From sequence record NC_129898.1: a stretch of 64,000 nucleotides of DNA. The stretch is one strand, 5' to 3'. Both the position numbers and the translations under genes were made by a program. Positions 1,248 through 59,076 of the stretch are shown here, piece after piece; the stretch's first letter is position 1; each line of letters starts with the position of its first letter. This DNA is from a phage. Below the pieces are notes generated by a model. The model ran no database searches. It was not told the origin of the DNA and saw nothing but the letters and a program-made list of their open reading frames with translations.

Positions 1248-1263
1248 GCAAATCTCCAGATCA

Positions 1264-1290
1264 TAAAAGCCCTCCGAAGAGGGCTTTAGG
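1264..1290 (-). terminator. terminator-like hairpin after the protease gene
   Basis: Minus-strand transcript AGCCCUC-uucg-GAGGGCU followed by UUUAU. Confidence 0.45.
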
Positions 1291-1298
1291 ATTAATGT

Positions 1299-2348
1299 TT
1301 AAGCTTCTTCGACAATTCCTGCGCCCAGGATTTTTTCATTGAGCTCTTTTGCTGTTTTAATAATATTGTCCACCAGACGCTTACGAGTCTTATCTTTCAC
1401 CTGAACTTCTTCTCCGCCGTTCAGGGTGGTTTTCAATTGGGACAAAATGTCCTGAAGCTCTACCACAGAGAATCGCTGCAGATCTTCCGAGGTAATCTCA
1501 CCCAGTGCAATCTTAACGGTCTCACCACTCTCCATCTGCAGATTCAGGAACACAGTGTGAACATCACCTTTCATACCATTTTCTTTTGCAGACTCAACAG
1601 CATGAACCAGCTCGTCCAAAGATGTGCATTGGTGAATCTCTGGCAGGCCTGCTTCGCCTAGCACACCTTCTTCATCACTTTTTGCCAAAAGCTTTTTCGG
1701 TTTCTGTCCATTCTGAATGCGCTGAATGTTTTCATCGTCCAGAATAATAGCACCAGTTCGAGATGCCAGCTCTTCTCCATCTAACCACACTTCGCCGCCA
1801 GCTGTGATGGATGCGATCTCATCTTCTGTTAGCACTCCACCGTAGTATTTTTCGATCAGGCGTTCAAAACGTTTCTTCCAGTAGTTGACCTGGGTATTCA
1901 TGTTCACACCGTTACCATAGGTGCCACCTTGATAATAGTGGAACATAAATTCTGTGTCCGGAGCCACAGTTCGTTCTTTGCAACCCATCCATAAGATTGT
2001 TCCTGCTGAACAGCACATCCCTTCAGCGTGTACAACAACGCTTGCCTGAGACTCGCGGAATGCCTGCAAATACGCCATAGCAATGTGAACGCAACCACCA
2101 GGGCTGTTAATGATTACACGGATACTTTCTTCTGGCTGAGCCATACGAATCGTCTGTAGACGAGACATATGATCTTGCAGGTCGTCCAAATCGTCAATAT
2201 AAAGAACGTGGTCAACAACAGGTGTTGGGTAGCTGTATGTTTCCATAATACCACCCGGCATACCAAACATTTTGTTACTCATAGGTTCGAAACCGTTCTG
2301 TTTTTCTTTCATGCCGTGTACCATGGTGCTGCGAGGTGTTAAATTCAT
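1299..2348 (-). CDS. ClpP/S49-like serine protease with C-terminal extension
   Basis: 'IINSPGGCV' ClpP-type motif and 'MCCSAGT' serine region; about 120 extra C-terminal residues. Confidence 0.65.
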   Translation of the reverse strand: MNLTPRSTMVHGMKEKQNGFEPMSNKMFGMPGGIMETYSYPTPVVDHVLYIDDLDDLQDHMSRLQTIRMAQPEESIRVIINSPGGCVHIAMAYLQAFRESQASVVVHAEGMCCSAGTILWMGCKERTVAPDTEFMFHYYQGGTYGNGVNMNTQVNYWKKRFERLIEKYYGGVLTEDEIASITAGGEVWLDGEELASRTGAIILDDENIQRIQNGQKPKKLLAKSDEEGVLGEAGLPEIHQCTSLDELVHAVESAKENGMKGDVHTVFLNLQMESGETVKIALGEITSEDLQRFSVVELQDILSQLKTTLNGGEEVQVKDKTRKRLVDNIIKTAKELNEKILGAGIVEEA

Positions 2349-2408: not shown

Positions 2409-2720
2409 TTATTTAGCAATCACTATAGAATACTTACGATTGTCAGAAGCATCACAGCTCAATGATTGCCAGTCTACCACATACCACGTATCATTGTCAA
2501 CAATTACTTTATCGCCTGTTCTGTAGCAGGTGCTGCTTTCAATAATCCTAGACTCGATAAAGAATCTGTGTCGGCGCTCACGTAGCAACGCTAAGTTGAT
2601 TATATTACCACCACTGTCCTTGGTCCACACATTCTTGGATCCTTTATTTGCCAAAATTGTCTCGCCGTTATATACAAACAGGCAGTATATTTTATTCAGT
2701 CTCTCTTGTATTGTAGCCAT
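2409..2720 (-). CDS. hypothetical protein
   Basis: Track ORF trimmed to the ATG at 2720 (AAGGAG RBS upstream); the track start at 2768 lies upstream of a predicted promoter. Confidence 0.4.
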   Translation of the reverse strand: MATIQERLNKIYCLFVYNGETILANKGSKNVWTKDSGGNIINLALLRERRHRFFIESRIIESSTCYRTGDKVIVDNDTWYVVDWQSLSCDASDNRKYSIVIAK

Positions 2721-2750: not shown

Positions 2751-2779
2751 ATAATATCTAAAGCTCACCTGTTTGTCAA
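2751..2779 (-). promoter_or_regulatory. sigma70-like promoter on the minus strand (TTGACA-17-TATTAT)
   Basis: Read on the reverse complement; downstream of a terminator-like hairpin at 2786-2815. Confidence 0.4.
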
Positions 2780-2823: not shown

Positions 2824-3612
2824 TTACTCGGAAACAGGAGTCCAAATATGATTTGCACGATCCTCAATAAGATTGAGTGCAATCTGACGGCCTAACCCGG
2901 AACGAACGACATCGTCTGGACTATCAAAGCTAATCATTCCAACCTCAGGATCTGGATGACGCGTAAAGAAATCTGTCACCCATGCAAGGCCAGATTTACC
3001 AGGGATGTCACGTTGGCTGTTATCGCCCATAATTACAAGGGTGGCCTGATCAGAGATCCTTGTGATAATTGACAACATTTCTTCAGGATTGGTTTGCTGT
3101 GCTTCATCAATAAGGACAAAGCATCGTTCATCAAAACTACGACCACGAATGCTTTCAACCTCACAAATCTCGATACGGCTGTTCTGACCGTCTCCAAGCA
3201 TTGCTGCAAAAGCACCTTTGCCAACACGACGACAAATCGTGTCCATCATGCTTCTAAGATAGGGCCACAGTTTCTGCATTGCATTTCCAGGTTTAAATCC
3301 TGAAGTCTTTCCTGTCTGAACGTAAGGGCGTGCAACAATGATCTTATCAATCTCGTTCTTGCGCAGAAGATCCCCTGCATATGCAGATGCCATGAATGTC
3401 TTACCGGATCCAAACACACCGTTTACAATGATAATCTTACGCGACCCTAGATAATCAAGATACTTTTGCTGCTTTTTATTCATTGGTCGGAGAGCTGGAG
3501 CGGTGTGCTCTCGTTCGTCAGCAAATTTTTCAGCAGCCTTACGCAGGCGATCAGATTTGCGAGCCTCTCTAGCTTCATCACGCATGCGTTTTGTTTCTTT
3601 AGCTCGACCCAT
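2824..3612 (-). CDS. phoH: PhoH-like ATPase
   Basis: Walker A 'GVFGSGKT', Walker B 'VLIDEAQ' and PhoH-typical C-terminal region. Confidence 0.85.
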   Translation of the reverse strand: MGRAKETKRMRDEAREARKSDRLRKAAEKFADEREHTAPALRPMNKKQQKYLDYLGSRKIIIVNGVFGSGKTFMASAYAGDLLRKNEIDKIIVARPYVQTGKTSGFKPGNAMQKLWPYLRSMMDTICRRVGKGAFAAMLGDGQNSRIEICEVESIRGRSFDERCFVLIDEAQQTNPEEMLSIITRISDQATLVIMGDNSQRDIPGKSGLAWVTDFFTRHPDPEVGMISFDSPDDVVRSGLGRQIALNLIEDRANHIWTPVSE

Positions 3613-4823: not shown

Positions 4824-5786
4824 TCAGCAACCACAACTTCCGTAGTGCTTAACCCGTTCTATAACCTCCGCTTGCTTACCTTTATTGTAAGGACGGGAGT
4901 TTGGACTGGACAGATACCCGGATACACGTCTAATCACACTGATCGTTCCCTCTTCATGGTTTCCACACTCTGGGCATACAAAGCCTTTAGCTGTTGCACT
5001 GAACTCACCAGAGAATCCACACTTAAGACATTTATCCACAGGCTGGTTAATACCAAAATACATAATGTGTTTATATCCGAAATCAACAAGAGCTTCCAAA
5101 GCATCTAAGTTGTTTTTCAGATTTGGTGTCTCTATGTACCCAATGTTGCCACCAGAGGAGATCATAGCAAAACCTTCCTCATACTTCCACTTATCAAAAG
5201 GCGAGCTATTGATCCATACTGGCTGATGGAAACTGTTGGTGAGGTATTCATGCTCGTGCTTCAACACTTCTGGGTATTCACGATCCAGACAGGTTGCAGC
5301 TTTATAGCATAAACTCTCAGAAGGTGTGCCGTACAAGCTAAATGCTAGTCCACTTTCCTTCTTGTATCGCTCACAAGCATCTTTCATGTGCTGAAGGATT
5401 CCAAGAGCTAAAGCCTTGTCACCCTCTCTGCCCAAAATCTGACAGGTTTCATACACACCAATATACCCAATACTGATGGAAGCGTACCCGTCATAGAAGA
5501 GTTTATCGATACTCTCTTCAGGATCCAGGCTAGCAAGAGCTCCTTCACACCACATGATAGGGTTATGCCCTGCCTTTGTTCCTTTTAGACGGTTAACTCT
5601 TACAAGGTGAGCCTCATATGCCAAATCCAAATATTCGTCAAGAACTGCAAAGAAATCAACACCTTCCGTTTTAGCTTTTGCCGCAATCATTGGTAGGTTA
5701 AGGCTAACAACACCCAAGTTGAATCTGCCAAGGTATTTCTCCTCGCCTGTTACAGGGTCGCTATATTTCGATAAGAAACTTCTACA
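4824..5786 (-). CDS. nrdD: anaerobic ribonucleotide reductase, exon 2 (C-terminal part)
   Basis: Begins 'CRSFLS'; C-terminal zinc ribbon CLKC...CPEC and glycyl-radical motif 'RVSGYL'; in frame with exon 1 after removing 5787-6548. Confidence 0.7.
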   Translation of the reverse strand, partial: CRSFLSKYSDPVTGEEKYLGRFNLGVVSLNLPMIAAKAKTEGVDFFAVLDEYLDLAYEAHLVRVNRLKGTKAGHNPIMWCEGALASLDPEESIDKLFYDGYASISIGYIGVYETCQILGREGDKALALGILQHMKDACERYKKESGLAFSLYGTPSESLCYKAATCLDREYPEVLKHEHEYLTNSFHQPVWINSSPFDKWKYEEGFAMISSGGNIGYIETPNLKNNLDALEALVDFGYKHIMYFGINQPVDKCLKCGFSGEFSATAKGFVCPECGNHEEGTISVIRRVSGYLSSPNSRPYNKGKQAEVIERVKHYGSCGC

Positions 5787-6548
5787 CATTATGTTCAAGG
5801 TGGTTCGCAAGGCCACCCCCGCACCATTACGTGCTGCTGCATGTCCCCATGCAGATCAGACTATATCTTCACACTTAGTGTGTCTACCATTTCGAGTGTC
5901 ATCAGCTTACACCCTACACCGCTACATTCATCACGGTTAGTCGTTAGGCATTTCGTAACAGAACTCGTAATCATAGTTATTAGGTGCACCACGTTTCAGG
6001 ATAGCAGATATTCTTTTTCTATCTATTCCTAAAACATCAGCACAACATCTCAGACTCTTAAAGTGAATAACCACACCAGTTAATTTGTGGGTGGCTTTCA
6101 CCCCGTGACATCTTGTGTAAAAAGCATAACAGTTGTTGTCGTATCCTTCTTGAGTATTGTCTGGGCAAGCTCCCCACTCAAGGTTGTATACGCTGTTATC
6201 TTTCCTGTTGTCACCTTTGTGCTTAACATATGGTAAATTGTCTGGATTTGGTAAAAACGCTTCAGCAACAAGTCTGTGAACCCTTAGGCAAACAGTCTTT
6301 TTGTTCTTGCGTATCCTGACAAGACGGTAACCTGTGTTTATCTCTTCCCACGAATGAATAATTCTTTCATTTTCGTATCGGGTGCAATAAACATTGCCCA
6401 TCTCGTCAATTTCATAACCTTCAAAATCACGAATTTGTTTTCTCATTTCAGGACTCCTCTTAGTCAGGAGTTCTGTTACGTTTAGCACGGGATTGTCCGT
6501 TCTGGAGTTTCCCCGTTTAGATAGATTTTACATGAGCAGTTATAGTTT
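5787..6548 (-). mobile_element. group I intron in nrdD carrying an HNH homing endonuclease ORF
   Basis: Exon 1 ends in U (..AUGGGU) with a complementary guide 'GCUCAU' 11 nt into the insert; 'AAGAUAUAGUCU' resembles the group I core S element; hairpin CUGCAUG-GGGA-CAUGCAG; insert ends in G; splicing joins SMG to CRSFL in frame. Confidence 0.6.
5937..6446 (-). CDS. HNH homing endonuclease (intron-encoded)
   Basis: HNH-type region 'VHRLVAEAF...HKGDNRKDNSVYNLEW'; AAGAGGAG RBS before the ATG at 6446. Confidence 0.75.
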   Translation of the reverse strand: MRKQIRDFEGYEIDEMGNVYCTRYENERIIHSWEEINTGYRLVRIRKNKKTVCLRVHRLVAEAFLPNPDNLPYVKHKGDNRKDNSVYNLEWGACPDNTQEGYDNNCYAFYTRCHGVKATHKLTGVVIHFKSLRCCADVLGIDRKRISAILKRGAPNNYDYEFCYEMPND

Positions 6549-32381: not shown

Positions 32382-32665
32382 GAGCCACCGTATTATTAGT
32401 TGCTTGCTTGCTTCTGTGCGGATGCGCGACAAGTGTCGAAAAAGAATATAAGATTGATCCTCCGGATGTGGGAAGATTGATTGTTAAACCGCCCGAAGGT
32501 GCTATGAAGCCTCCTGCTAAAGCTATACCTTTAAAGAAAGGTGCGCCTGATGCGGTGAATTCTGGCATTATGAGGGATAATAACCTGTCTTGCAGTAATG
32601 ATAGGGCTAAATTGATCATTTTGCAAGACTATATTAGAACACTGTTTCCAAAGGAGAGAGGTTAA
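32378..32665 (+). CDS. o-spanin (Rz1-like lipoprotein)
   Basis: Signal peptide with lipobox-like LLLCGC and proline-rich mature part; ATGA overlap with the i-spanin gene. Confidence 0.55.
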   Translation: MRATVLLVACLLLCGCATSVEKEYKIDPPDVGRLIVKPPEGAMKPPAKAIPLKKGAPDAVNSGIMRDNNLSCSNDRAKLIILQDYIRTLFPKERG

Positions 32666-34212
32666 TGTCTAAGATTTACGGACCGTGTTCTGAAAAGCAG
32701 AAGATGATCCTTGAAAACGATGCAGACATTCTTGTCATTGGTGGTGCGGCTGGTTCAGGTAAGTCGTTCCTCCTGCAGTTGATGCCGCTTAAAATTATTG
32801 ATGATCCGCACAGCTCTGTGGTTATGTTCCGAAGAACAACTCCACAGTTGGAAGGTGAGGGTGGGCTATGGCCTAAAGCAGTAGCTATTTACAGTGATCT
32901 GCCTGAAAACATTAAACCAAAGTTCAGAGAGAAGGATCATAAGTTTATTTTTCCACGGTTTGATCCGAGCACTGGCAAGTGGGACAGGAGCAAAAAAGGG
33001 GCCGTTGTAAAATACTGCCACATGGAGTATGTCCAAGATAAGCTTAACCATCAAGGCCTTGAGTACACCATGGTTTGCTTCGATGAAGGCACGCAATTCG
33101 AATGGGAGCAGATAGACTATTTGATGTCTCGTCTGCGATCTCAGTCAAAGTATCCATCAAGAATGGTTATCAGTTGTAACCCCGACTCAGAACACATGCT
33201 TGCCAAACTGGTTAGGTGGTGGTTGGACGATGAAGGGTATCCAGATCCGGAGAAATGTGGTAAGAAAAGATATTTTATCCGACGCGACGGTGAGTTTATC
33301 TGGGGAGACTCTAAAGAGGAGTTAATAGAGAAATACACCACGGTTAACGGACTGGGTGTGGAGATCAAGCCAAGACCGTTGTCATTCTCGTTTATAGGTG
33401 CAACAATTTTCGATAATCCTGTCTGCTTGAGAGACAACCCAGAATACCTTGCTTTCCTTGAAGGTCTACCAGAGCTTGAAAAAGCCCAGCTTCTTCATGG
33501 CAACTGGTTTGCCAAACCTGAGGGTGCAAACTATTTCCAAAGATCTTTCCTTCGTGATGCCGATAGAGTACCTCTTGGATCAGTATCTTGCAGGGCATGG
33601 GATAAGGCAGGAACCGAGAGAACTTCCGGTAATAAATTTCCTGACTTTACTGCCAGTGTTAAGGTAAGTAAAGATAGCGACGGTTTTTATTACCTGTCCG
33701 GGGATTATTGTCCTGAGAACGTGGATGACGGTAGGTATTCCACAGGTCTGGAAGGTAAGTTCTGTAAAAAGGCTGGGGAACGAGATGTGATCATCAGGAA
33801 ACAGGCGCAGTTTGATGGAGATGATTGCATAATCGTATTTTCTGTGGACCCCGGTCAGGCAGGTAAGAGTGAGTTCTTAACCTCGTCCAGATCCTTGCTC
33901 GCCGAAGGGTTCAGGGTTGAAGAAGATCCGATGCCTTCCAACAAATCTAAACTGACAAGGTTCTCACCTTTTGCCAATCTTGCCCAACAAGGAATGGTGA
34001 GGATTGTAAAATCCAGTTTCCATCCTGACACTCTGGAAGCATTTTTGACTGAACTTGAAAAGTTCAACGGGGAAAGATCAACATTTAACAGAAAAGACGA
34101 CTGGGCCGACTGTGTAGCTTCTGCGATTAATTTCCTGGAGAAAGAGGAGGTAGCGCTGCCTTGTGTTATTCCATCAATCTCATCACCTTCTATGTTCAAG
34201 CGTTTTATCTAA
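32665..34212 (+). CDS. terminase large subunit
   Basis: Walker A 'GGAAGSGKS', Walker B 'MVCFDEGTQ', C-terminal nuclease-like region. Confidence 0.9.
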   Translation: MSKIYGPCSEKQKMILENDADILVIGGAAGSGKSFLLQLMPLKIIDDPHSSVVMFRRTTPQLEGEGGLWPKAVAIYSDLPENIKPKFREKDHKFIFPRFDPSTGKWDRSKKGAVVKYCHMEYVQDKLNHQGLEYTMVCFDEGTQFEWEQIDYLMSRLRSQSKYPSRMVISCNPDSEHMLAKLVRWWLDDEGYPDPEKCGKKRYFIRRDGEFIWGDSKEELIEKYTTVNGLGVEIKPRPLSFSFIGATIFDNPVCLRDNPEYLAFLEGLPELEKAQLLHGNWFAKPEGANYFQRSFLRDADRVPLGSVSCRAWDKAGTERTSGNKFPDFTASVKVSKDSDGFYYLSGDYCPENVDDGRYSTGLEGKFCKKAGERDVIIRKQAQFDGDDCIIVFSVDPGQAGKSEFLTSSRSLLAEGFRVEEDPMPSNKSKLTRFSPFANLAQQGMVRIVKSSFHPDTLEAFLTELEKFNGERSTFNRKDDWADCVASAINFLEKEEVALPCVIPSISSPSMFKRFI

Positions 34213-34215
34213 GTG

Positions 34216-34244
34216 TTGCCAATCTTAATTAGATGTGGTAGAAT
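34216..34244 (+). promoter_or_regulatory. promoter-like element (TTGCCA-17-TAGAAT with TG extension)
   Basis: Between the terminase and portal genes. Confidence 0.4.
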
Positions 34245-34314
34245 AGAGTAATCGGAGATACTAGCCCTCTGACACGAGGGCTATTTTGTTATACTGTTTT
34301 GAGGGGTAAAGCTT

Positions 34315-35871
34315 GTGTCCAAAAAGAACCGCAGGAAACACAACGCCACAGCCAAAACTGTGAATAAATCTGGGAACGCAGGCGCACCAACTCATAATGT
34401 TCGTATGAGTGAGATCGGTTCTGGCGCACTTTCCCAAATTATGGCAGAATCACAATCTATGATGGTTGAGGAATTGCGTTGGCCTCAGCTGATTGCCACA
34501 GTGGAGACTATGAAATGTGATTCCACAGTTGCTACTGCCTTAGATACAAAATATGTTTTCATCACGAAAGCATTTAATGATTTTAAGATCCTTTATAATG
34601 TTAAAAGTGAAGACTCTAAGAAAGCTGCCGAGCTTATAGAGTATTCTTTGCGTAATTTGGCAAACCAGCAAACTCTTCGAGATATTGCAAGAAGCGCAGC
34701 TACCTTTAACGAGTATGGTTTTTCACTGTTTGAGAAAGTATACCGCAGAGAGAAAGAAGGTAAATATGCCGGGATGCTTCTTATTGATAAAATTGCATTC
34801 CGACCTCAGGCCAGTTTGTCCAGATCAGAGCCGTTTGTCTTTGACAAGAATAGTAGAACACTGACAGGTATTTATCAATCACCTAATGCATTTCTAAACA
34901 CGCAGAATGCACGCTGGGCTGGTCCTCTTGCTGCAATGCCTTCAAAAGGCTTTAACGAGCCTGAAATTTTCATCCCTGCCAAGAAGCTTATGCTCATGAC
35001 CTTGTCAGGAACAGAGTCTAATCCTGCAGGTGTGTCACCGATGATAGGTTGCTACAGATCTTTCCGTGAGAAAGTTCTGATTGAAAACCTTGAGGTTGTT
35101 GGCTGCTCCAAAGACCTTGGTGGTGTGCTTGAGCTGAAAATTCCTTCCAATATTCTGAACAAGGCCAGCATTGACCCGAATTCAATGGAAGGGAGAATGG
35201 TTGCAGATCTTATGCTTGACGCAGCAAATGCCCACAGTGGGGAGCAAAGTTTCTTTATACTTCCGTCTGATAGAGATAAGTCTGGTAAAGAGCTTTACTC
35301 CATGACCCTGAAGGGTGTTGACGGCATGGGTAAGCAGTATTCAACTAAAGATTTGATTGATGCCCGTAAGAAGGCGATTCTTGACCGTTTCGGTGCTGGA
35401 TTTATTAACCTCGGTAACGATAACGTTGGATCCTTCTCCCTGTCTGAGTCAAAACAGTCTATCCATGGGCATTTTGTTCAGCGTGATATAGATATTATCA
35501 CTGAGGCCTTCAATAAAGATCTTATTCCACAGCTTCTGGCATTGAATGGTATCATCCTTGAAGATGATGATATGCCTAAACTGAAACCTGGTCTGATTGA
35601 AGAAGTGGACATGGAGAGCTTCTCCAAGTTTGTCCAGAGGATCGGTGCTGTAGGTTATTTGCCAAAAACTCCTGCAGTAATTAATAAGATTCTTGAAGTA
35701 GGCGGGTTTGATGAAAGATTTGACGAGGACATGGATCAGGAAGAGCTAATGAAACTCTTGGGCCAGGACATCAGTAGAGCTGGTGATGGAATGGCTGCAG
35801 GATCCACTGGCAACGGCACTTCTAAGATGTCATCAACCAGAGATAACTCCATATCTAACATGGAAAATTAA
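34315..35871 (+). CDS. portal protein
   Basis: 518-aa ORF immediately downstream of the terminase gene; GTG start with GAGGGG RBS; assigned by position and size. Confidence 0.65.
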   Translation: MSKKNRRKHNATAKTVNKSGNAGAPTHNVRMSEIGSGALSQIMAESQSMMVEELRWPQLIATVETMKCDSTVATALDTKYVFITKAFNDFKILYNVKSEDSKKAAELIEYSLRNLANQQTLRDIARSAATFNEYGFSLFEKVYRREKEGKYAGMLLIDKIAFRPQASLSRSEPFVFDKNSRTLTGIYQSPNAFLNTQNARWAGPLAAMPSKGFNEPEIFIPAKKLMLMTLSGTESNPAGVSPMIGCYRSFREKVLIENLEVVGCSKDLGGVLELKIPSNILNKASIDPNSMEGRMVADLMLDAANAHSGEQSFFILPSDRDKSGKELYSMTLKGVDGMGKQYSTKDLIDARKKAILDRFGAGFINLGNDNVGSFSLSESKQSIHGHFVQRDIDIITEAFNKDLIPQLLALNGIILEDDDMPKLKPGLIEEVDMESFSKFVQRIGAVGYLPKTPAVINKILEVGGFDERFDEDMDQEELMKLLGQDISRAGDGMAAGSTGNGTSKMSSTRDNSISNMEN

Positions 35872-35938: not shown

Positions 35939-36358
35939 ATGCCACAGGAAGAAATGATTTCCTACGAAATCATCTACGAACCTGACACTAAAGATGCTCA
36001 CGGTGAGTGGATGAGTAAAGACACCATCAAAAAGGCTAAAGATAACTGGGACGCAGCATACGCCGCAGGACTAGTTTCTGAAAACCTTTTTCACTTGACC
36101 TCTACAGATGCTTTCACTATTGAAAAGACGTGGATTCAAGAAGAGTTTGATGTTGTAGTAATTGGCACTGAGCAGGTCATCAAGGCTGGCTCTTGGGTTG
36201 CTAAAGTTAAATACAATAATCCTGAATTATGGGAAGCTAAGAAGGCTGGCATTGTTGGTGGCCTAAGCATTCAGGCAACAGGTAATGTTGATGAAGAGAC
36301 TGGTGAAATTACCAACGTAAACTTCGGGATCAGTGTTGTAGAAGAGGGCAATGAATAA
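35939..36358 (+). CDS. hypothetical head-module protein
   Basis: Track ORF 35783-36358 overlaps the portal gene; trimmed to an internal ATG (alternative 35927). Confidence 0.35.
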   Translation: MPQEEMISYEIIYEPDTKDAHGEWMSKDTIKKAKDNWDAAYAAGLVSENLFHLTSTDAFTIEKTWIQEEFDVVVIGTEQVIKAGSWVAKVKYNNPELWEAKKAGIVGGLSIQATGNVDEETGEITNVNFGISVVEEGNE

Positions 36359-37335
36359 TGTCTGAAAAAACGATTACTATTAAAGAGAAGGGGATTGCCC
36401 TGTGCCATAAGGCGCAAGGCTATAGCGCTAACAACAGACCTGTATCTCTTTTGATGAAGAGTGATCTTCAGCCTGAGCAGTTAACAGACGATATTGTTAA
36501 GGCACTTCGCCAAGTTACTGTGGAGCTTAGTTTTGAAGAATACCTGCGTCGTTTCTTCGATATGTGGTATGATGATGCCAAAGCACTTGCACACATGCTT
36601 GGTTTTGAGATTGAAGAGGAAGCTTGGGCTAAAGAGCATCCTGATTGGGAATGGGCGCAAGCTGACGCAGAGTCTTGTATTGCATGGCTGGAAGAGCGTT
36701 GTGATAACGTGACCATTCATAAAGCTGCAAAAGAAGGCAAGCAGCTTAGTGTGGTAGATCAGTACAGCCTGCTAAAAACACAACAGATTTTTGAACAAGT
36801 AACCGCTGATCTCTTCGATAAAGAAGGGAACCTGATCAAGGCGGTACAGGAACCTACTGAGGTAGATAAAACTACCGAGGTGGATGATGTTGCAAAATCC
36901 GCAAATACCGAGGAGAATCCGGTGGACGTAACCAAAACTAAAGAGTATCTGGATCTGCTGAAGCAAGTAGAAGAGCTGAAAGCAACCCAGAGTAAAGCTG
37001 AAGAAATCATCAAGGCTCAGGTTGAAGTTGAAAAAGCTAAAATGCTGACTAAAGCTCAAGCTTTAAGCTTTGTTGGTGAAGAAGATCATGCAACCCTGGT
37101 TGACTTCATGCTGGAAAAAGCTAACGAACCTATTGTAGCTATGCTGGAGAAAGCTCAAGCCAAAATTGAAGAGCTGGAAGCAGAGGTGCATAAAACCAAA
37201 GAAGAGTTTGCCACCACTGAACATGGTAATGATGGCGAACCTGTTGTGGATGATATTGCAAAATCCGCAGAAGAAATTCTTGCTGAAAACGTTGCAAAAG
37301 CACTTGCTCGTGCACGTGCAGAATCTACTAAATAA
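36358..37335 (+). CDS. putative scaffolding protein
   Basis: Acidic, helix-rich, with internal repeats (DDVAKSA..., DDIAKSAEE); sits between portal and capsid genes. Confidence 0.45.
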   Translation: MSEKTITIKEKGIALCHKAQGYSANNRPVSLLMKSDLQPEQLTDDIVKALRQVTVELSFEEYLRRFFDMWYDDAKALAHMLGFEIEEEAWAKEHPDWEWAQADAESCIAWLEERCDNVTIHKAAKEGKQLSVVDQYSLLKTQQIFEQVTADLFDKEGNLIKAVQEPTEVDKTTEVDDVAKSANTEENPVDVTKTKEYLDLLKQVEELKATQSKAEEIIKAQVEVEKAKMLTKAQALSFVGEEDHATLVDFMLEKANEPIVAMLEKAQAKIEELEAEVHKTKEEFATTEHGNDGEPVVDDIAKSAEEILAENVAKALARARAESTK

Positions 37336-37355: not shown

Positions 37356-37745
37356 ATGATTACCGCTCAATATTCTGATATCGTGCTCGGCAAAGTTGAT
37401 TCTAGCGATGCTGGCTACAATTTTAAAGAGATGGAAATTACACTGACAGAGCACCATCATGCTGGTACTGTTGTAACAAAAACTGGCACTATCGCTAACG
37501 ATGATGGCTCAGATGTTTATGGTGTTATTGTAGACCGAGCTCTGGTAAAAGATGCAGGAAAAGTTCATCTCGCTGAGCCTCTGCAAACAGGCCAGAAATA
37601 TAAACTGGTTGTTGCAGTTCACGGTGTTACCTTTGCAAAAGATAAGCTGCTGGGGTCTAACGGTGAAGCAGCTAAGCAGGCTGTTCTTGAAAAGCTTGAA
37701 GCTCTGGGTAACAAAGTTCACGTCCAGACTCTTGGTGAAGAGTAA
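37356..37745 (+). CDS. putative head decoration protein
   Basis: 129-aa protein immediately upstream of the capsid gene; assigned by position and size only. Confidence 0.35.
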   Translation: MITAQYSDIVLGKVDSSDAGYNFKEMEITLTEHHHAGTVVTKTGTIANDDGSDVYGVIVDRALVKDAGKVHLAEPLQTGQKYKLVVAVHGVTFAKDKLLGSNGEAAKQAVLEKLEALGNKVHVQTLGEE

Positions 37746-37793: not shown

Positions 37794-38804
37794 ATGATTA
37801 CTCGTAAAGATGAATTTGGCATTGTTGATTTAGGTGCTACTCTGGACCTTGTTCCGCGTCAATTTCGCCTGATCACCGGTATGGATCTGTTCGAAACTCG
37901 TCTTGGCACCTCAACAATTGCTCAGATCGAGCGTGTTGATGAAGTTGTAACCGACATTCCGGCACGCCGTCGTGGCGGTGAGCGTAACTACGTTGGTAGT
38001 GAACGTGCTCAGGTTAAAAACCTGAACATCCCGTTCTTCCCTCTGGACAAAGGCATCACTGCCGCAGATGTTCAGAACTTCCGTCGTTACTTCACCCCTG
38101 ACGCTCCGAAAACTGTTCAGGATGTAGTAACCCGCGTTGTTCGCCGTATCCGTGTTTCTCATGAAGCACTGCGTGAGAAAGCGCTGTTCCAGGCTATTCT
38201 GGGTAAATCCTATGCACCTGGTGACACCACCTGTCAGTATGATTACTACACTCTGTGGGGCGTGTCTCAGAAGTCTGTTGAGATTGACCCTGCAAAAGCA
38301 GATCAGGATCCTATGGAGGTTCTGGAAGAAGCTCGTCTGCACATCGCACTGCAAGCTGGTGATAACGCAGCTGGCTACCGTATTGTAGCTCTGTGCTCAC
38401 CAGAGTTCTTCAGTGCTATTACCCATCACCCGCTGGTAGAACTGGCATACACCTATTACGGCTCTGCTCAGGAACCTCTGCGTCGCCGTCTGGGTGCTGG
38501 CGGTCAGGACAGCGTATACCGTGTGTTTGAACATAAAGGTATCACCTTTATCGAAGATATCTCTGGCAATATTCCTAAGAAAGAAGCTCGCATTCTGCCG
38601 ATGGGTATTGATCAGATGTTCCAGCTGCACTTTGCTCCGGCAGATGATGTTAACGAAGCAAACACTCCAGCACAGGAACTGTACATGTGGTACAAACACT
38701 CTGCATACCTGCGTGAAGAGAAGATTGAATCTGAAACTTCTATGCTGGCAGTTAACACCCGTCCAGAGTTGGTTGTTAAAGTAACTCTGAAAAACGGTGG
38801 CTAA
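37794..38804 (+). CDS. major capsid protein
   Basis: 336-aa ORF with strongly biased high-expression codon use, in capsid position, followed by a strong terminator. Confidence 0.7.
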   Translation: MITRKDEFGIVDLGATLDLVPRQFRLITGMDLFETRLGTSTIAQIERVDEVVTDIPARRRGGERNYVGSERAQVKNLNIPFFPLDKGITAADVQNFRRYFTPDAPKTVQDVVTRVVRRIRVSHEALREKALFQAILGKSYAPGDTTCQYDYYTLWGVSQKSVEIDPAKADQDPMEVLEEARLHIALQAGDNAAGYRIVALCSPEFFSAITHHPLVELAYTYYGSAQEPLRRRLGAGGQDSVYRVFEHKGITFIEDISGNIPKKEARILPMGIDQMFQLHFAPADDVNEANTPAQELYMWYKHSAYLREEKIESETSMLAVNTRPELVVKVTLKNGG

Positions 38805-38884: not shown

Positions 38885-39700
38885 GTGAAGAGAGCCGTAT
38901 ATCCAGTTGAGTATGATCCTCTATTAAGAGTTTTCAACAATCAGTTAAGTTTCTATCAATTTTTAGCACAATATAACCCAGAAATCAATGTTGGTTTATC
39001 AGCCCTGCTGCCACCAACAGAATTCGTTATTGGCAGTGTTCACTATCCGTGCAGAACGATTGTAGACTTCTTCGAGAAGATTGCAAAACACACAGGCCTG
39101 CCAATTGATACTGGTATTTCAACTATCCGTATGGGTGTTATTCTTCTGTTCTTCACAGAGAACCTTGATGAAAGCACTTTAACACTGCAAAGCGGTGATG
39201 TCAATATCACACTCACCCCGTCAGTGTTTAAAGAGGTAGATGCCGCTTTCAAAGTTTCCGTGGCAGAGGGCCATCTGTGGGATCCTGCAGGGATGCCTAA
39301 AAAAGTGACCATAAACGATGAGCAATGCAGCATTGTTTATGAAGAAGATACCCAAACTTTCACCATCGAATGGCCTAAGAAACGCTCTCAGGTTGTAAAT
39401 CTTGGACTGACCTCTACAGTGGCCCCAGAGCCTGAACCTGAAGTTCCGGAACCACCTCTTGAGGGTGACGGTGAAGGTCCTGTAGCAGATCCACAAGATG
39501 TGGCTGTAGCCTCTTTCGCATCTGCAGCTGTTGAGAATAAGGATGAAATCCTTAAACAGGCCGCAGCTCTTAACAACGAAGATGACAAAAGTGGTTCAAA
39601 AGATGCACTCCAAACCTTTGCTAAAGAGTATGGTGTTACCTTAAGTAAGGCAAAAACTTTCCAAAATATGATGAAAGATTTTGAGGCTGCACTGGCATAA
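38885..39700 (+). CDS. hypothetical structural protein
   Basis: 271-aa ORF with an acidic, proline-rich linker. Confidence 0.45.
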   Translation: MKRAVYPVEYDPLLRVFNNQLSFYQFLAQYNPEINVGLSALLPPTEFVIGSVHYPCRTIVDFFEKIAKHTGLPIDTGISTIRMGVILLFFTENLDESTLTLQSGDVNITLTPSVFKEVDAAFKVSVAEGHLWDPAGMPKKVTINDEQCSIVYEEDTQTFTIEWPKKRSQVVNLGLTSTVAPEPEPEVPEPPLEGDGEGPVADPQDVAVASFASAAVENKDEILKQAAALNNEDDKSGSKDALQTFAKEYGVTLSKAKTFQNMMKDFEAALA

Positions 39701-40386: not shown

Positions 40387-40415
40387 TTGCTTTTGATGTA
40401 TCTTTGTGGTAAAAT
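40387..40415 (+). promoter_or_regulatory. promoter with extended -10 (TGGTAAAAT)
   Basis: Motif TGGTAAAATACA is shared with the promoter at 43908-43936. Confidence 0.45.
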
Positions 40416-40433
40416 ACATTAGTGAGGAATATA

Positions 40434-43907: not shown

Positions 43908-43936
43908 TTGACAATGCACCGTAATCATGGTAAAAT
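43908..43936 (+). promoter_or_regulatory. sigma70 promoter (TTGACA-17-TAAAAT with TG extension)
   Basis: Consensus -35, 17-nt spacer, TGGTAAAAT. Confidence 0.55.
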
Positions 43937-43979
43937 ACACAAATATGGTGCACAACATGACTAATAAGGATGCTATAAA

Positions 43980-59014: not shown

Positions 59015-59076
59015 GTATTGCGTATTAACTTAAAATCTGGTAAAATAACTACCATAATTGTTAACCGGGAGGCACA

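Follow-up and report, generated by a model that had tools for sequence, protein, structure and literature searches.

The open reading frame (ORF) at positions 1299-2348 of the window (the whole 64,000-nt stretch of phage DNA analysed here, from record NC_129898.1) most likely encodes a non-structural serine protease that works in the infected cell. More specifically, we consider it probable that this gene is the Vequintavirus ortholog of rV5 gp122, that its product is a ClpP-fold serine protease with no part in the capsid, and that the protease of the head is instead the product of the gene at 35939-36358. The head module is in this respect ordinary: its own maturation protease adjoins the scaffold gene, and for this reason we do not regard the gene at 1299-2348 as a misplaced capsid protease.

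On sequence grounds, the source phage is a coliphage of the rV5/FV3 type, and the flagged gene is one that has long been annotated as a ClpP-like protease, with a putative function. The ORF proposed in the initial annotation is genuine, and its main parts are the following:

1299..2348, minus strand: ClpP-like serine protease ORF of the rV5 gp122 / FV3 ORF114 family, with an ATG start and 349 aa
1749..2216, minus strand: ClpP-fold core (aa ~45-200), with an AF2 pLDDT of about 90
2007-2009, 1938-1940 and 1791-1793, minus strand: candidate catalytic codons for Ser114, His137 and Glu186, respectively (codons checked)
1314..1562, minus strand: lineage-specific C-terminal domain (aa 263-345), modelled as a beta-hairpin plus three helices

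The protein is 99.7% identical to FV3 ORF114 and 96% identical to V5/rV5 gp122, and its PHROG family is phrog_5410 (E 1e-154). By this identity the gene is already known, since both rV5 gp122 and FV3 ORF114 carry a ClpP annotation. These two and the “ClpP-like protease” of the BASEL Vequintaviruses are the same gene, with identity over all 349 aa, and the gene here does not differ from them in any material way. The rV5-type relatives also have the surroundings in common, i.e., the 103-aa ORF, PhoH and methyltransferase neighbours, the predicted promoter P121 and the predicted terminator t122. By tblastn, 841 phage records contain homologs; in the records examined, the ClpP-fold protein appears to be a second, non-structural protease. 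A fold search of BFVD with the protein returned only further phage “Clp protease” annotations, and nothing relevant was found in the searchable literature on functional work with phage-encoded ClpP-like proteases.

The ClpP-like part of the original label is well founded. The Pfam family CLP_protease (PF00574) matches aa 59-168 at 51.1 bits (E 1.9e-13; cut-off 20.2), as it also matches all 40 homologs tested, and the AlphaFold2 core (aa 45-220) can be superposed on ClpP chains of known structure with TM values of about 0.65-0.73 relative to the target, over ~165 aligned columns. When this core is compared with the PDB by Foldseek, the top 50 matches are all ClpP (E about 1e-9), and the model includes a handle-like helix at aa 150-169. 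Ser114 aligns with the ClpP nucleophile and His137 with the ClpP general base. All 40 homologs (40-96% identity) and six phage lineages retain these two residues and the NSPGG oxyanion-hole motif unchanged, which indicates selection for catalysis. Six individual residues (N81, G84, G85, S114, M135 and H137) are unchanged across the Vequintavirinae, ICP1, nt-1, PAK_P2, VBP47, a Sugarlandvirus and E. coli ClpP. Most of the lineages compared have an acidic residue, Asp or Glu, at the third triad position: it is Glu186 here and Asp in ICP1, nt-1, VBP47 and the Sugarlandvirus, and several sister genera have Gln. Cellular ClpP (MEROPS S14, E. coli) has the same fold, Ser-His pair and NSPGG motif, but the identity to it is only about 20%, its catalytic Asp is replaced by Glu or Gln in the phage family, and the phage protein has an additional C-terminal region of 150 aa.

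The “S49-like” part of the label does not stand. The S49/SppA models reach 15.6 bits (TIGR00706; cut-off 155) and there is no significant match to an S49 Pfam family, so that the S49 assignment was dropped; because His137 is conserved, an S14-type catalytic centre is favoured over a Ser-Lys dyad.

A C-terminal extension is present as first described, but its length is about 150 aa (aa 201-349) rather than 120. It begins with a partly disordered linker (aa 201-262) that connects the core to the C-terminal domain. The Pfam families SAP, Rho_N and HeH have no match in this domain in any of the 40 homologs, and a profile built from the domain recovers, among 1.84 billion representatives, five family members plus three repeat proteins (cadherin-like and others), which we judge to be spurious matches. 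At the opposite end of the protein, aa 1-41 are predicted to be disordered and do not align to the N-terminal axial loops of ClpP.

The initial annotation started from the premise that a lambda-type capsid uses an S49/ClpP-fold protease, saw no recognisable protease in the head module, and offered a displaced prohead protease as one of two readings of the ORF. The content of the head module argues otherwise on each point:

34315..35871, plus strand: portal protein (Pfam Portal_Mu, phrog_113)
35939..36358, plus strand: predicted maturation protease of the XkdF / Peptidase_S78_2 type (PF14550, phrog_1530)
36358..37335, plus strand: scaffold homolog of 325 aa, rV5 gp62 (phrog_2970)
37356..37745, plus strand: head decoration protein (phrog_2680)
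37794..38804, plus strand: major capsid protein of the lambda gpE family (Phage_cap_E 136.5 bits, phrog_29)

The interval 35939-36358 had itself been named as a place where the identification of a different prohead protease would refute the idea, and a profile search finds a distinct one there. PF14550 matches this plus-strand ORF at 64.6 bits (E 1.2e-17; cut-off 24), over profile positions 8-123 of 126. The maximal ORF starts with a GTG at 35783, which overlaps the portal gene, and the protein is 139-191 aa long (35783/35939..36358). The portal gene precedes it and the scaffold homolog follows it, with the decoration and major capsid genes next in the module. The coat protein of the Phage_cap_E family is found here together with a protease of the PF14550 type.

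The head gene order is the same in ICP1, with gp125 as the protease and gp124 as the scaffold. The ICP1 “capsid protease” gp125 is 41% identical to the head protease here, and both contain DAHG and GLSI motifs, although the ~110-aa C-terminal region of gp125 (278 aa) is missing from the present protein. The scaffold homolog is 28% identical (E 2e-11) to ICP1 gp124, which has been demonstrated experimentally to be a scaffold (PMC10945586), and the homolog of the decoration protein in rV5, gp61, has mass-spectrometry evidence. Orthologs of the head protease were detected in virions (W70_136 and CB7_5), and in annotations its orthologs bear the names maturation protease or prohead protease, the second of these in phage EduardKellenberger. 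The head protease sequence has no match among PDB sequences and NCBIfam models. Judged by these comparisons, the product of 35939-36358 is probably the capsid maturation enzyme, with a candidate His/Ser pair. Since this XkdF/S78_2-type enzyme occupies the canonical head slot, is a homolog of ICP1 gp125 and has orthologs in the virions of W70 and CB7, the reading of the ClpP-like ORF as a displaced prohead protease is not supported.

The location of the ClpP-like gene in a metabolic block was described correctly. It sits between PhoH and a DNA methyltransferase gene, with NrdG and NrdD nearby, on the strand opposite to all structural genes examined, and the large distance to the head module, given as ~30 kb, measures about 33.6 kb. 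Its immediate surroundings are:

1263..1284, minus strand: predicted intrinsic terminator hairpin (GCCCTC-TTCG-GAGGGC-TTTTAT)
2409..2720, minus strand: 103-aa ORF, homolog of rV5 gp121 (phrog_5456, E 3.8e-39)
2751..2779, minus strand: predicted sigma-70-type promoter (TTGACA-17-TATTAT, 11/12 consensus positions)
2824..3612, minus strand: PhoH-like ATPase (Pfam PhoH 160.9 bits), a conserved near neighbour

The predicted promoter is at the same site as the predicted rV5 P121, and the hairpin, which begins 14 nt 3' of the ClpP-like stop codon, is identical to the predicted rV5 t122. In this predicted unit the ClpP-like gene comes second, after the 103-aa ORF (ATG at 2720, with AAGGAGAAGG just before it), and it shares its strand with the replication and nucleotide-metabolism genes. 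A putative late-promoter motif is confined to the plus-strand structural block.

The 103-aa ORF is 31% identical to Mydo gp128, which is encoded upstream of the Mydo ClpP-like gene. A ClpS-like adaptor role was considered for this ORF and rejected, as it has no Pfam match and its sole PHROG match is phrog_5456. Annotations also place PhoH and the ClpP-like gene together in Mydo, PcCB7V, ICP1 and eugene 12A10. The case for PhoH as a partner ATPase is one of synteny, with PhoH annotated a short way upstream in the Vequintavirinae, ICP1 and eugene 12A10 but not in the four other lineages examined, and we did not adopt it.

The other reading offered initially, a protease with a non-structural role, is supported indirectly by this predicted sigma-70-type unit with its terminator, on the strand of replication and nucleotide metabolism. 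Three further observations point in the same direction, of which the first is the composition of virions. Prohead proteases often exit the capsid, and absence from virions is for this reason weak evidence. Nonetheless, the protein was undetected in all three virion proteomes consulted (rV5, W70 and CB7): no entry of the rV5 MS table has the mass of gp122 (38541), none of the 28 W70 virion proteins belongs to phrog_5410, and the term “Clp” does not occur in the main text of the CB7 paper, its virion MS table included.

The second observation is the timing of the homolog in ICP1, gp211. This protein has a ClpP-like core that is 35% identical to the one here, in a total of 326 aa, and its gene is downstream of PhoH in an Nrd/ligase block. 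Both gp211 and the PhoH protein gp208 are classed as middle-late, whereas the capsid cluster gp122-126, including the protease gp125, is late. That the homolog is middle-late and not early is, however, a point against the proposed reading. Like the present protein, gp211 has a C-terminal extension, but the two extensions have no detectable similarity, and its third triad residue is Asp as opposed to Glu.

The third observation is the position of the gene in more distant phages, since six other phages that we examined have the homolog away from their head genes. Phage nt-1, which is T4-like, encodes gp21 in the head cluster, and a separate ClpP-like gene occurs in addition between frd and uvsX. 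In PAK_P2 and VBP47 the homolog is among unannotated ORFs, away from the annotated head genes, and in the Sugarlandvirus it is between a dNMP kinase and the lysis genes, again outside the annotated head genes.

We suggest that the ClpP-like protein would assemble into a ClpP-like ring, with Ser114-His137-Glu186 as the candidate catalytic centre proposed from the sequence. Its presumed site of action is the cytoplasm of the infected host, midway through infection, and its targets may be host or phage proteins or peptides. Canonical docking of the host ClpX or ClpA is probably absent, because the N-terminal axial-loop region and the Tyr60/Tyr62 residues of ClpP are not conserved. The C-terminal domain of 80 aa is expected to emerge on the apical, ATPase-binding face, where it could gate the pore or recruit substrates.

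A broader proposal, which we make tentatively and consider rather doubtful, is that these proteins form a widespread non-structural ClpP-related clade, exapted from ClpP-like head-maturation proteases and active in the middle-late period, perhaps together with a PhoH-like ATPase. Homologs of this clade occur in the Vequintavirinae, ICP1, eugene-like vibriophages, Pakpunavirus, the T4-like Mylasvirus, N4-like phages and a Sugarlandvirus, and possible roles include the breakdown of host or defence proteins. A protease-triggered CBASS is reported to restrict the Vequintavirinae phages Bas48-59, and the ClpP-like protease could be the activity that is sensed. With two proteases in such a phage, it would be useful to learn which of them triggers the sensing.

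Of the alternatives to a non-structural protease acting without the host ATPases, the one that survives best, although we think it unlikely, is a true ATP-dependent ClpP substitute, in which a tetradecamer of the phage protein docks with host ClpX or ClpA and redirects degradation for the phage. The ClpP fold, the conserved Ser and His with an acidic third residue, and the handle-like helix at aa 150-169 of the model are all in keeping with this idea, and many GenBank records carry the annotation “ATP-dependent Clp protease proteolytic subunit”. The “ATP-dependent” label has been transferred by similarity only, however, and the models specific for ClpP itself score far below their thresholds (the equivalog TIGR00493 gives 34.2 bits, with a cut-off of 308.6, and PRK00277 gives 39.1, with a cut-off of 249). 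The N-terminal 41 residues are predicted to be disordered, unlike the axial loops of ClpP. In ClpP a hydrophobic pocket with Tyr60 and Tyr62 (E. coli numbering) takes part in docking the IGF/L loops of ClpX or ClpA. The positions that should correspond to these tyrosines hold Arg77 and Ile79 here, without variation among the close homologs, and differ from one lineage of the phage clade to another. From the architecture of ClpP, the 150-aa C-terminal extension would also be expected to emerge near the face on which the ATPase docks.

A second alternative, which we consider very unlikely, is that the ClpP-like protease enters or acts on procapsids and processes scaffold, portal or internal proteins, either alone or together with the XkdF-type enzyme. 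The best curated HMM for the ORF is NF045542, “head maturation protease, ClpP-related” (65.6 bits, E 4.8e-18), which exceeds the cellular ClpP models (34-41 bits), and PHROG head-maturation families match with E values between 1e-16 and 1e-24. Among the S49 peptidases, lambda gpC is the analogue of such ClpP-related head maturation proteases. In small phages such as Vibrio phage K231, a relative with ~30% identity (gene 4 of K231) serves as the head-module protease; the peak of the ICP1 homolog is middle-late and overlaps the onset of late expression; and mature virions can lose proteases. Against this, 65.6 bits is far under the NF045542 cut-off of 120, and the canonical head slot is already filled by a PF14550 protease that scores above the Pfam cut-off and is found in the virions of relatives. 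A member of the NF045542 family would be expected in the head module, between the portal gene and the scaffold or coat gene, while the gene here is separated from that module by 33.6 kb and faces the other way from the structural genes examined, with a predicted sigma-70-type promoter and a terminator of its own. The protease of the head module belongs to another family. In addition, nt-1 retains gp21 and has its ClpP-like gene among replication genes, and the homolog was undetected in the three virion proteomes. A morphogenetic ancestry or a side role is possible, because NF045542 is the closest model and a relative is part of the K231 head module.

The weakest alternative, which we regard as extremely improbable, is a catalytically inactive ClpP-fold scaffold, decoy or inhibitor that, for example, poisons host ClpP rings: other systems have inactive paralogs of ClpP (ClpR), and several genera have Gln as the third triad residue, but the 40 homologs and the six phage lineages retain the nucleophilic Ser, the His and the NSPGG motif without exception.

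The head module of the window is laid out as follows.

32665-34212 (+), large terminase (Pfam Terminase_6N and 6C, phrog_979)
34315-35871 (+), portal (Portal_Mu, phrog_113)
35783/35939-36358 (+), head protease (PF14550, phrog_1530)
36358-37335 (+), 325-aa scaffold homolog (phrog_2970)
37356-37745 (+), decoration protein (phrog_2680)
37794-38804 (+), major capsid protein (Phage_cap_E, 136.5 bits)

The initial annotation held that this module has no recognisable protease, an anomaly that does not exist: the ORF at 35939-36358, which was named there as a place to check for another prohead protease, matches PF14550 (Peptidase_S78_2, "putative phage serine protease XkdF") over nearly the full profile (E 1.2e-17; 64.6 bits, cut-off 24). 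The maximal ORF begins with a GTG at 35783, giving an 89-nt overlap with the portal gene, and the Pfam domain starts at the ATG at 35939. The protein is 41% identical (tblastn) to ICP1 gp125, which is labelled "capsid protease", and its homolog in phage EduardKellenberger is labelled "prohead protease". The gene order in ICP1 is alike (terminase, portal, gp126, capsid protease gp125, scaffold gp124, decoration gp123 and coat gp122). The scaffold role of gp124 has been shown by experiment (PMC10945586), and the window's 325-aa protein is 28% identical to it (E 2e-11). W70 and CB7 are other Vequintavirinae phages with published virion proteomes. Mass spectrometry of W70 virions identified the portal W70_137, the "capsid maturation protease" W70_136 (phrog_1530), and members of phrog_2970, phrog_2680 and phrog_29 (PMC11370258); in CB7 virions the same approach found CB7_5, a "putative prohead core protein protease" encoded between the portal and a 40-kDa protein (PMC7344957). 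The 2013 rV5 paper lists the gene merely as a conserved hypothetical protein (PMC3606486). Phrog_1530 itself is labelled "DNA methyltransferase", which is why the capsid protease appears under that name, or as a hypothetical protein, in many rV5-like, Phapecoctavirus-like and other records.

Two further observations concern this module. The scaffold homolog gave 913 spectra in purified W70 virions, where it is abundant (PMC11370258), and appears, with fewer peptides, in the rV5 and CB7 virion lists (PMC3606486, PMC7344957); scaffold in virions is unusual, and scaffold fragments may stay inside the capsid. In addition, the C-terminal 44 aa of a 271-aa protein (38885-39700, +) match phrog_1051, "minor head protein inhibitor of protease" (E 1.9e-7), a match that could bear on how the head protease is controlled.

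The ClpP-like gene belongs to a well-known phage group. The first 6 kb of the window match 296 phage records by megablast, mostly Escherichia and Salmonella phages and many of them in Vequintavirinae, with Escherichia phages EPFV3 and FV3 (genus Vequintavirus) closest at 98% identity. The FV3 ortholog is labelled [quoted passage not shown], and the rV5 counterpart is gp122 (349 aa, 38,541 Da; PMC3606486), so the gene is a long-annotated one and not a new finding. A functional characterisation of its family was not found in the searchable literature. As side observations, records MG065662-MG065689 ("Campylobacter phage A1xx", host Campylobacter jejuni) share 92-96% identity with coliphage Vequintavirus in the region that was compared, and their host label looks doubtful; the large terminase (32665-34212, +) is one intact 515-aa ORF in the window, and the rV5 terminase gene is described as interrupted and spliced (PMC3606486).

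The gene and its associated elements are the following, all on the minus strand.

2779-2751 (-), predicted sigma-70-type promoter (TTGACA-17-TATTAT, 11/12 consensus positions)
2720-2409 (-), 103-aa ORF with a good Shine-Dalgarno sequence, between the predicted promoter and the ClpP-like ORF
1299..2348 (-), ClpP-like ORF, 349 aa
1284-1263 (-), predicted hairpin terminator (GCCCTC-TTCG-GAGGGC-TTTTAT), after the ClpP-like ORF

The product has a ClpP fold and conserved Ser and His residues. Residues 59-168 match Pfam CLP_protease (51.1 bits, cut-off 20.2), and the protein has its own PHROG, phrog_5410 (E 1e-154). In an AlphaFold2 model built with 40 homologs, residues 1-41 are predicted to be disordered, aa 45-220 have a pLDDT of about 90, aa 223-263 make up a poorly defined linker, and pLDDT is 70-83 in a C-terminal domain (aa 265-343). 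The top 50 Foldseek matches in the PDB are ClpP chains only (E about 1e-9, TM about 0.65-0.73 relative to the target). Ser114 (CCSAG) aligns to the ClpP nucleophile and His137 (MFHYY) to the general base in HMMER alignments to solved ClpP chains, a placement that is independent of the E. coli reference used below. N81, G84 and G85 (the NSPGG oxyanion motif), S114, M135 and H137 are invariant across six phage lineages and E. coli ClpP. The position of the catalytic Asp (aa 186, codon 1791-1793, -) is Glu186 in Vequintavirus and Gln in several sister genera, but Asp in ICP1, nt-1, VBP47 and a Sugarlandvirus, with Ser and His invariant throughout. Of the original "ClpP/S49-like" description, the ClpP part thus stands by CLP_protease and Foldseek, and the S49 part is rejected, since S49/SppA models score far under threshold and the conserved His is in keeping with an S14-type centre.

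Judged by sequence, the protein is ClpP at the domain level, but no ClpP ortholog. Scores below cut-off on both TIGR00493 (34 bits against 308.6) and NF045542 ("head maturation protease, ClpP-related"; 65.6 against 120) place it between the two families, somewhat nearer the phage head-protease group; in K231 and similar small phages, a 30%-identical relative serves in the head module. In E. coli ClpP, Tyr60 and Tyr62 belong to the pocket for the ClpX/ClpA loops. In an alignment of phage homologs with the E. coli sequence, the N-terminal axial loop has no counterpart in the ClpP-like protein, and the two Tyr positions are occupied by an invariant Arg77 and Ile79. The "ATP-dependent" label is thus unsupported.

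The C-terminal extension noticed earlier is real, although it comprises about 150 aa beyond the core rather than 120. Modelled alone, aa 263-345 form a beta-hairpin followed by three helices (pLDDT 80-94), in which F293, E297 and R322 are invariant. Among 1.84 billion representative proteins, a profile search found this domain in the gene's own family only; the extension of the ICP1 homolog is unrelated in sequence, and shorter homologs (182-244 aa) lack the domain. ClpP C-termini sit on the apical surface, so seven such domains could cap a ring.

The ClpP-like gene lies outside the structural block, in a unit with the predicted promoter and terminator at its ends; the same elements were predicted in rV5 as P121 and t122. 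It is flanked by genes for a DNA methyltransferase (714-1247), the 103-aa ORF, PhoH (2824-3612), NrdG and NrdD. An HNH-type homing endonuclease ORF (5937-6488), annotated likewise in FV3, appears to split the NrdD region (4824-6488, -). The 103-aa ORF (phrog_5456, rV5 gp121) has no Pfam match, and a 31%-identical counterpart lies upstream of the ClpP-like gene of Proteus phage Mydo. The putative late-promoter motif of rV5, TGGTAAAATA, has three exact copies in the window, where chance would give 0.26, and all three are plus-strand sites in the structural block. A variant that differs by one base closely precedes the portal gene; like the promoter and terminator, these sites are predictions.

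34237-34246, 40407-40416, 43928-43937 and 59038-59047 (+), TGGTAAAATA sites, including the variant

The ClpP-like protein is undetected in virions of relatives. The mass of gp122 is absent from the rV5 mass spectrometry table of 19 proteins (PMC3606486), none of the 28 W70 virion proteins belongs to phrog_5410 (PMC11370258), and the term "Clp" does not occur in the main text of the CB7 paper, including its virion table (PMC7344957). Homologs of the core are present in 841 phage records (tblastn), and we examined eight loci besides the window. T4-like nt-1 has the gene between frd and uvsX and also encodes gp21, in the cluster gp20-gp68-gp21-gp22-gp23. ICP1 gp211 follows PhoH gp208 within the Nrd/ligase block, and RNA-seq assigns gp205-211 to the middle-late class and the capsid cluster gp122-126 to the late class (PMC7567579). 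The gene lies between PhoH and DNA ligase in eugene 12A10, between dNMP kinase and lysis genes in a Sugarlandvirus, and among unannotated ORFs in PAK_P2 and N4-like VBP47, outside any annotated head genes in the last three. It is downstream of PhoH and upstream of a methyltransferase in Mydovirus and Certrevirus, and Seunavirus EspYZU15 has an equal ORF layout with unannotated neighbours. A PhoH-like ATPase gene is found 1-4 small ORFs upstream in the window, Mydovirus, Certrevirus, ICP1 and eugene 12A10, but not in nt-1, PAK_P2, VBP47 or the Sugarlandvirus. This proximity could reflect inherited synteny or a functional link; the two ICP1 genes share the middle-late expression class (PMC7567579).

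The predicted transcription signals, the virion lists, the gene's setting in other phages and its presence alongside a canonical head protease favour a non-structural role for the ClpP-like protein. We propose that it forms a ring-shaped serine protease, whose targets would be host or phage proteins or peptides in the cytoplasm of the infected cell, during the middle or middle-late phase of infection. It would probably not use the canonical docking of host Clp ATPases, and its lineage-specific C-terminal domain may control access or recruit substrates. A recent preprint describes a protease-sensing CBASS that restricts Vequintavirinae phages Bas48-59 with a specificity unlike that for T4 gp21; the phage protease is not named there, and the trigger could be either the ClpP-like or the head protease of the window. 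Vequintavirus accounts for 118 records with the ClpP-like gene (at least 95% identity) and 117 with the head protease (at least 99%), so the two proteases appear to co-occur.
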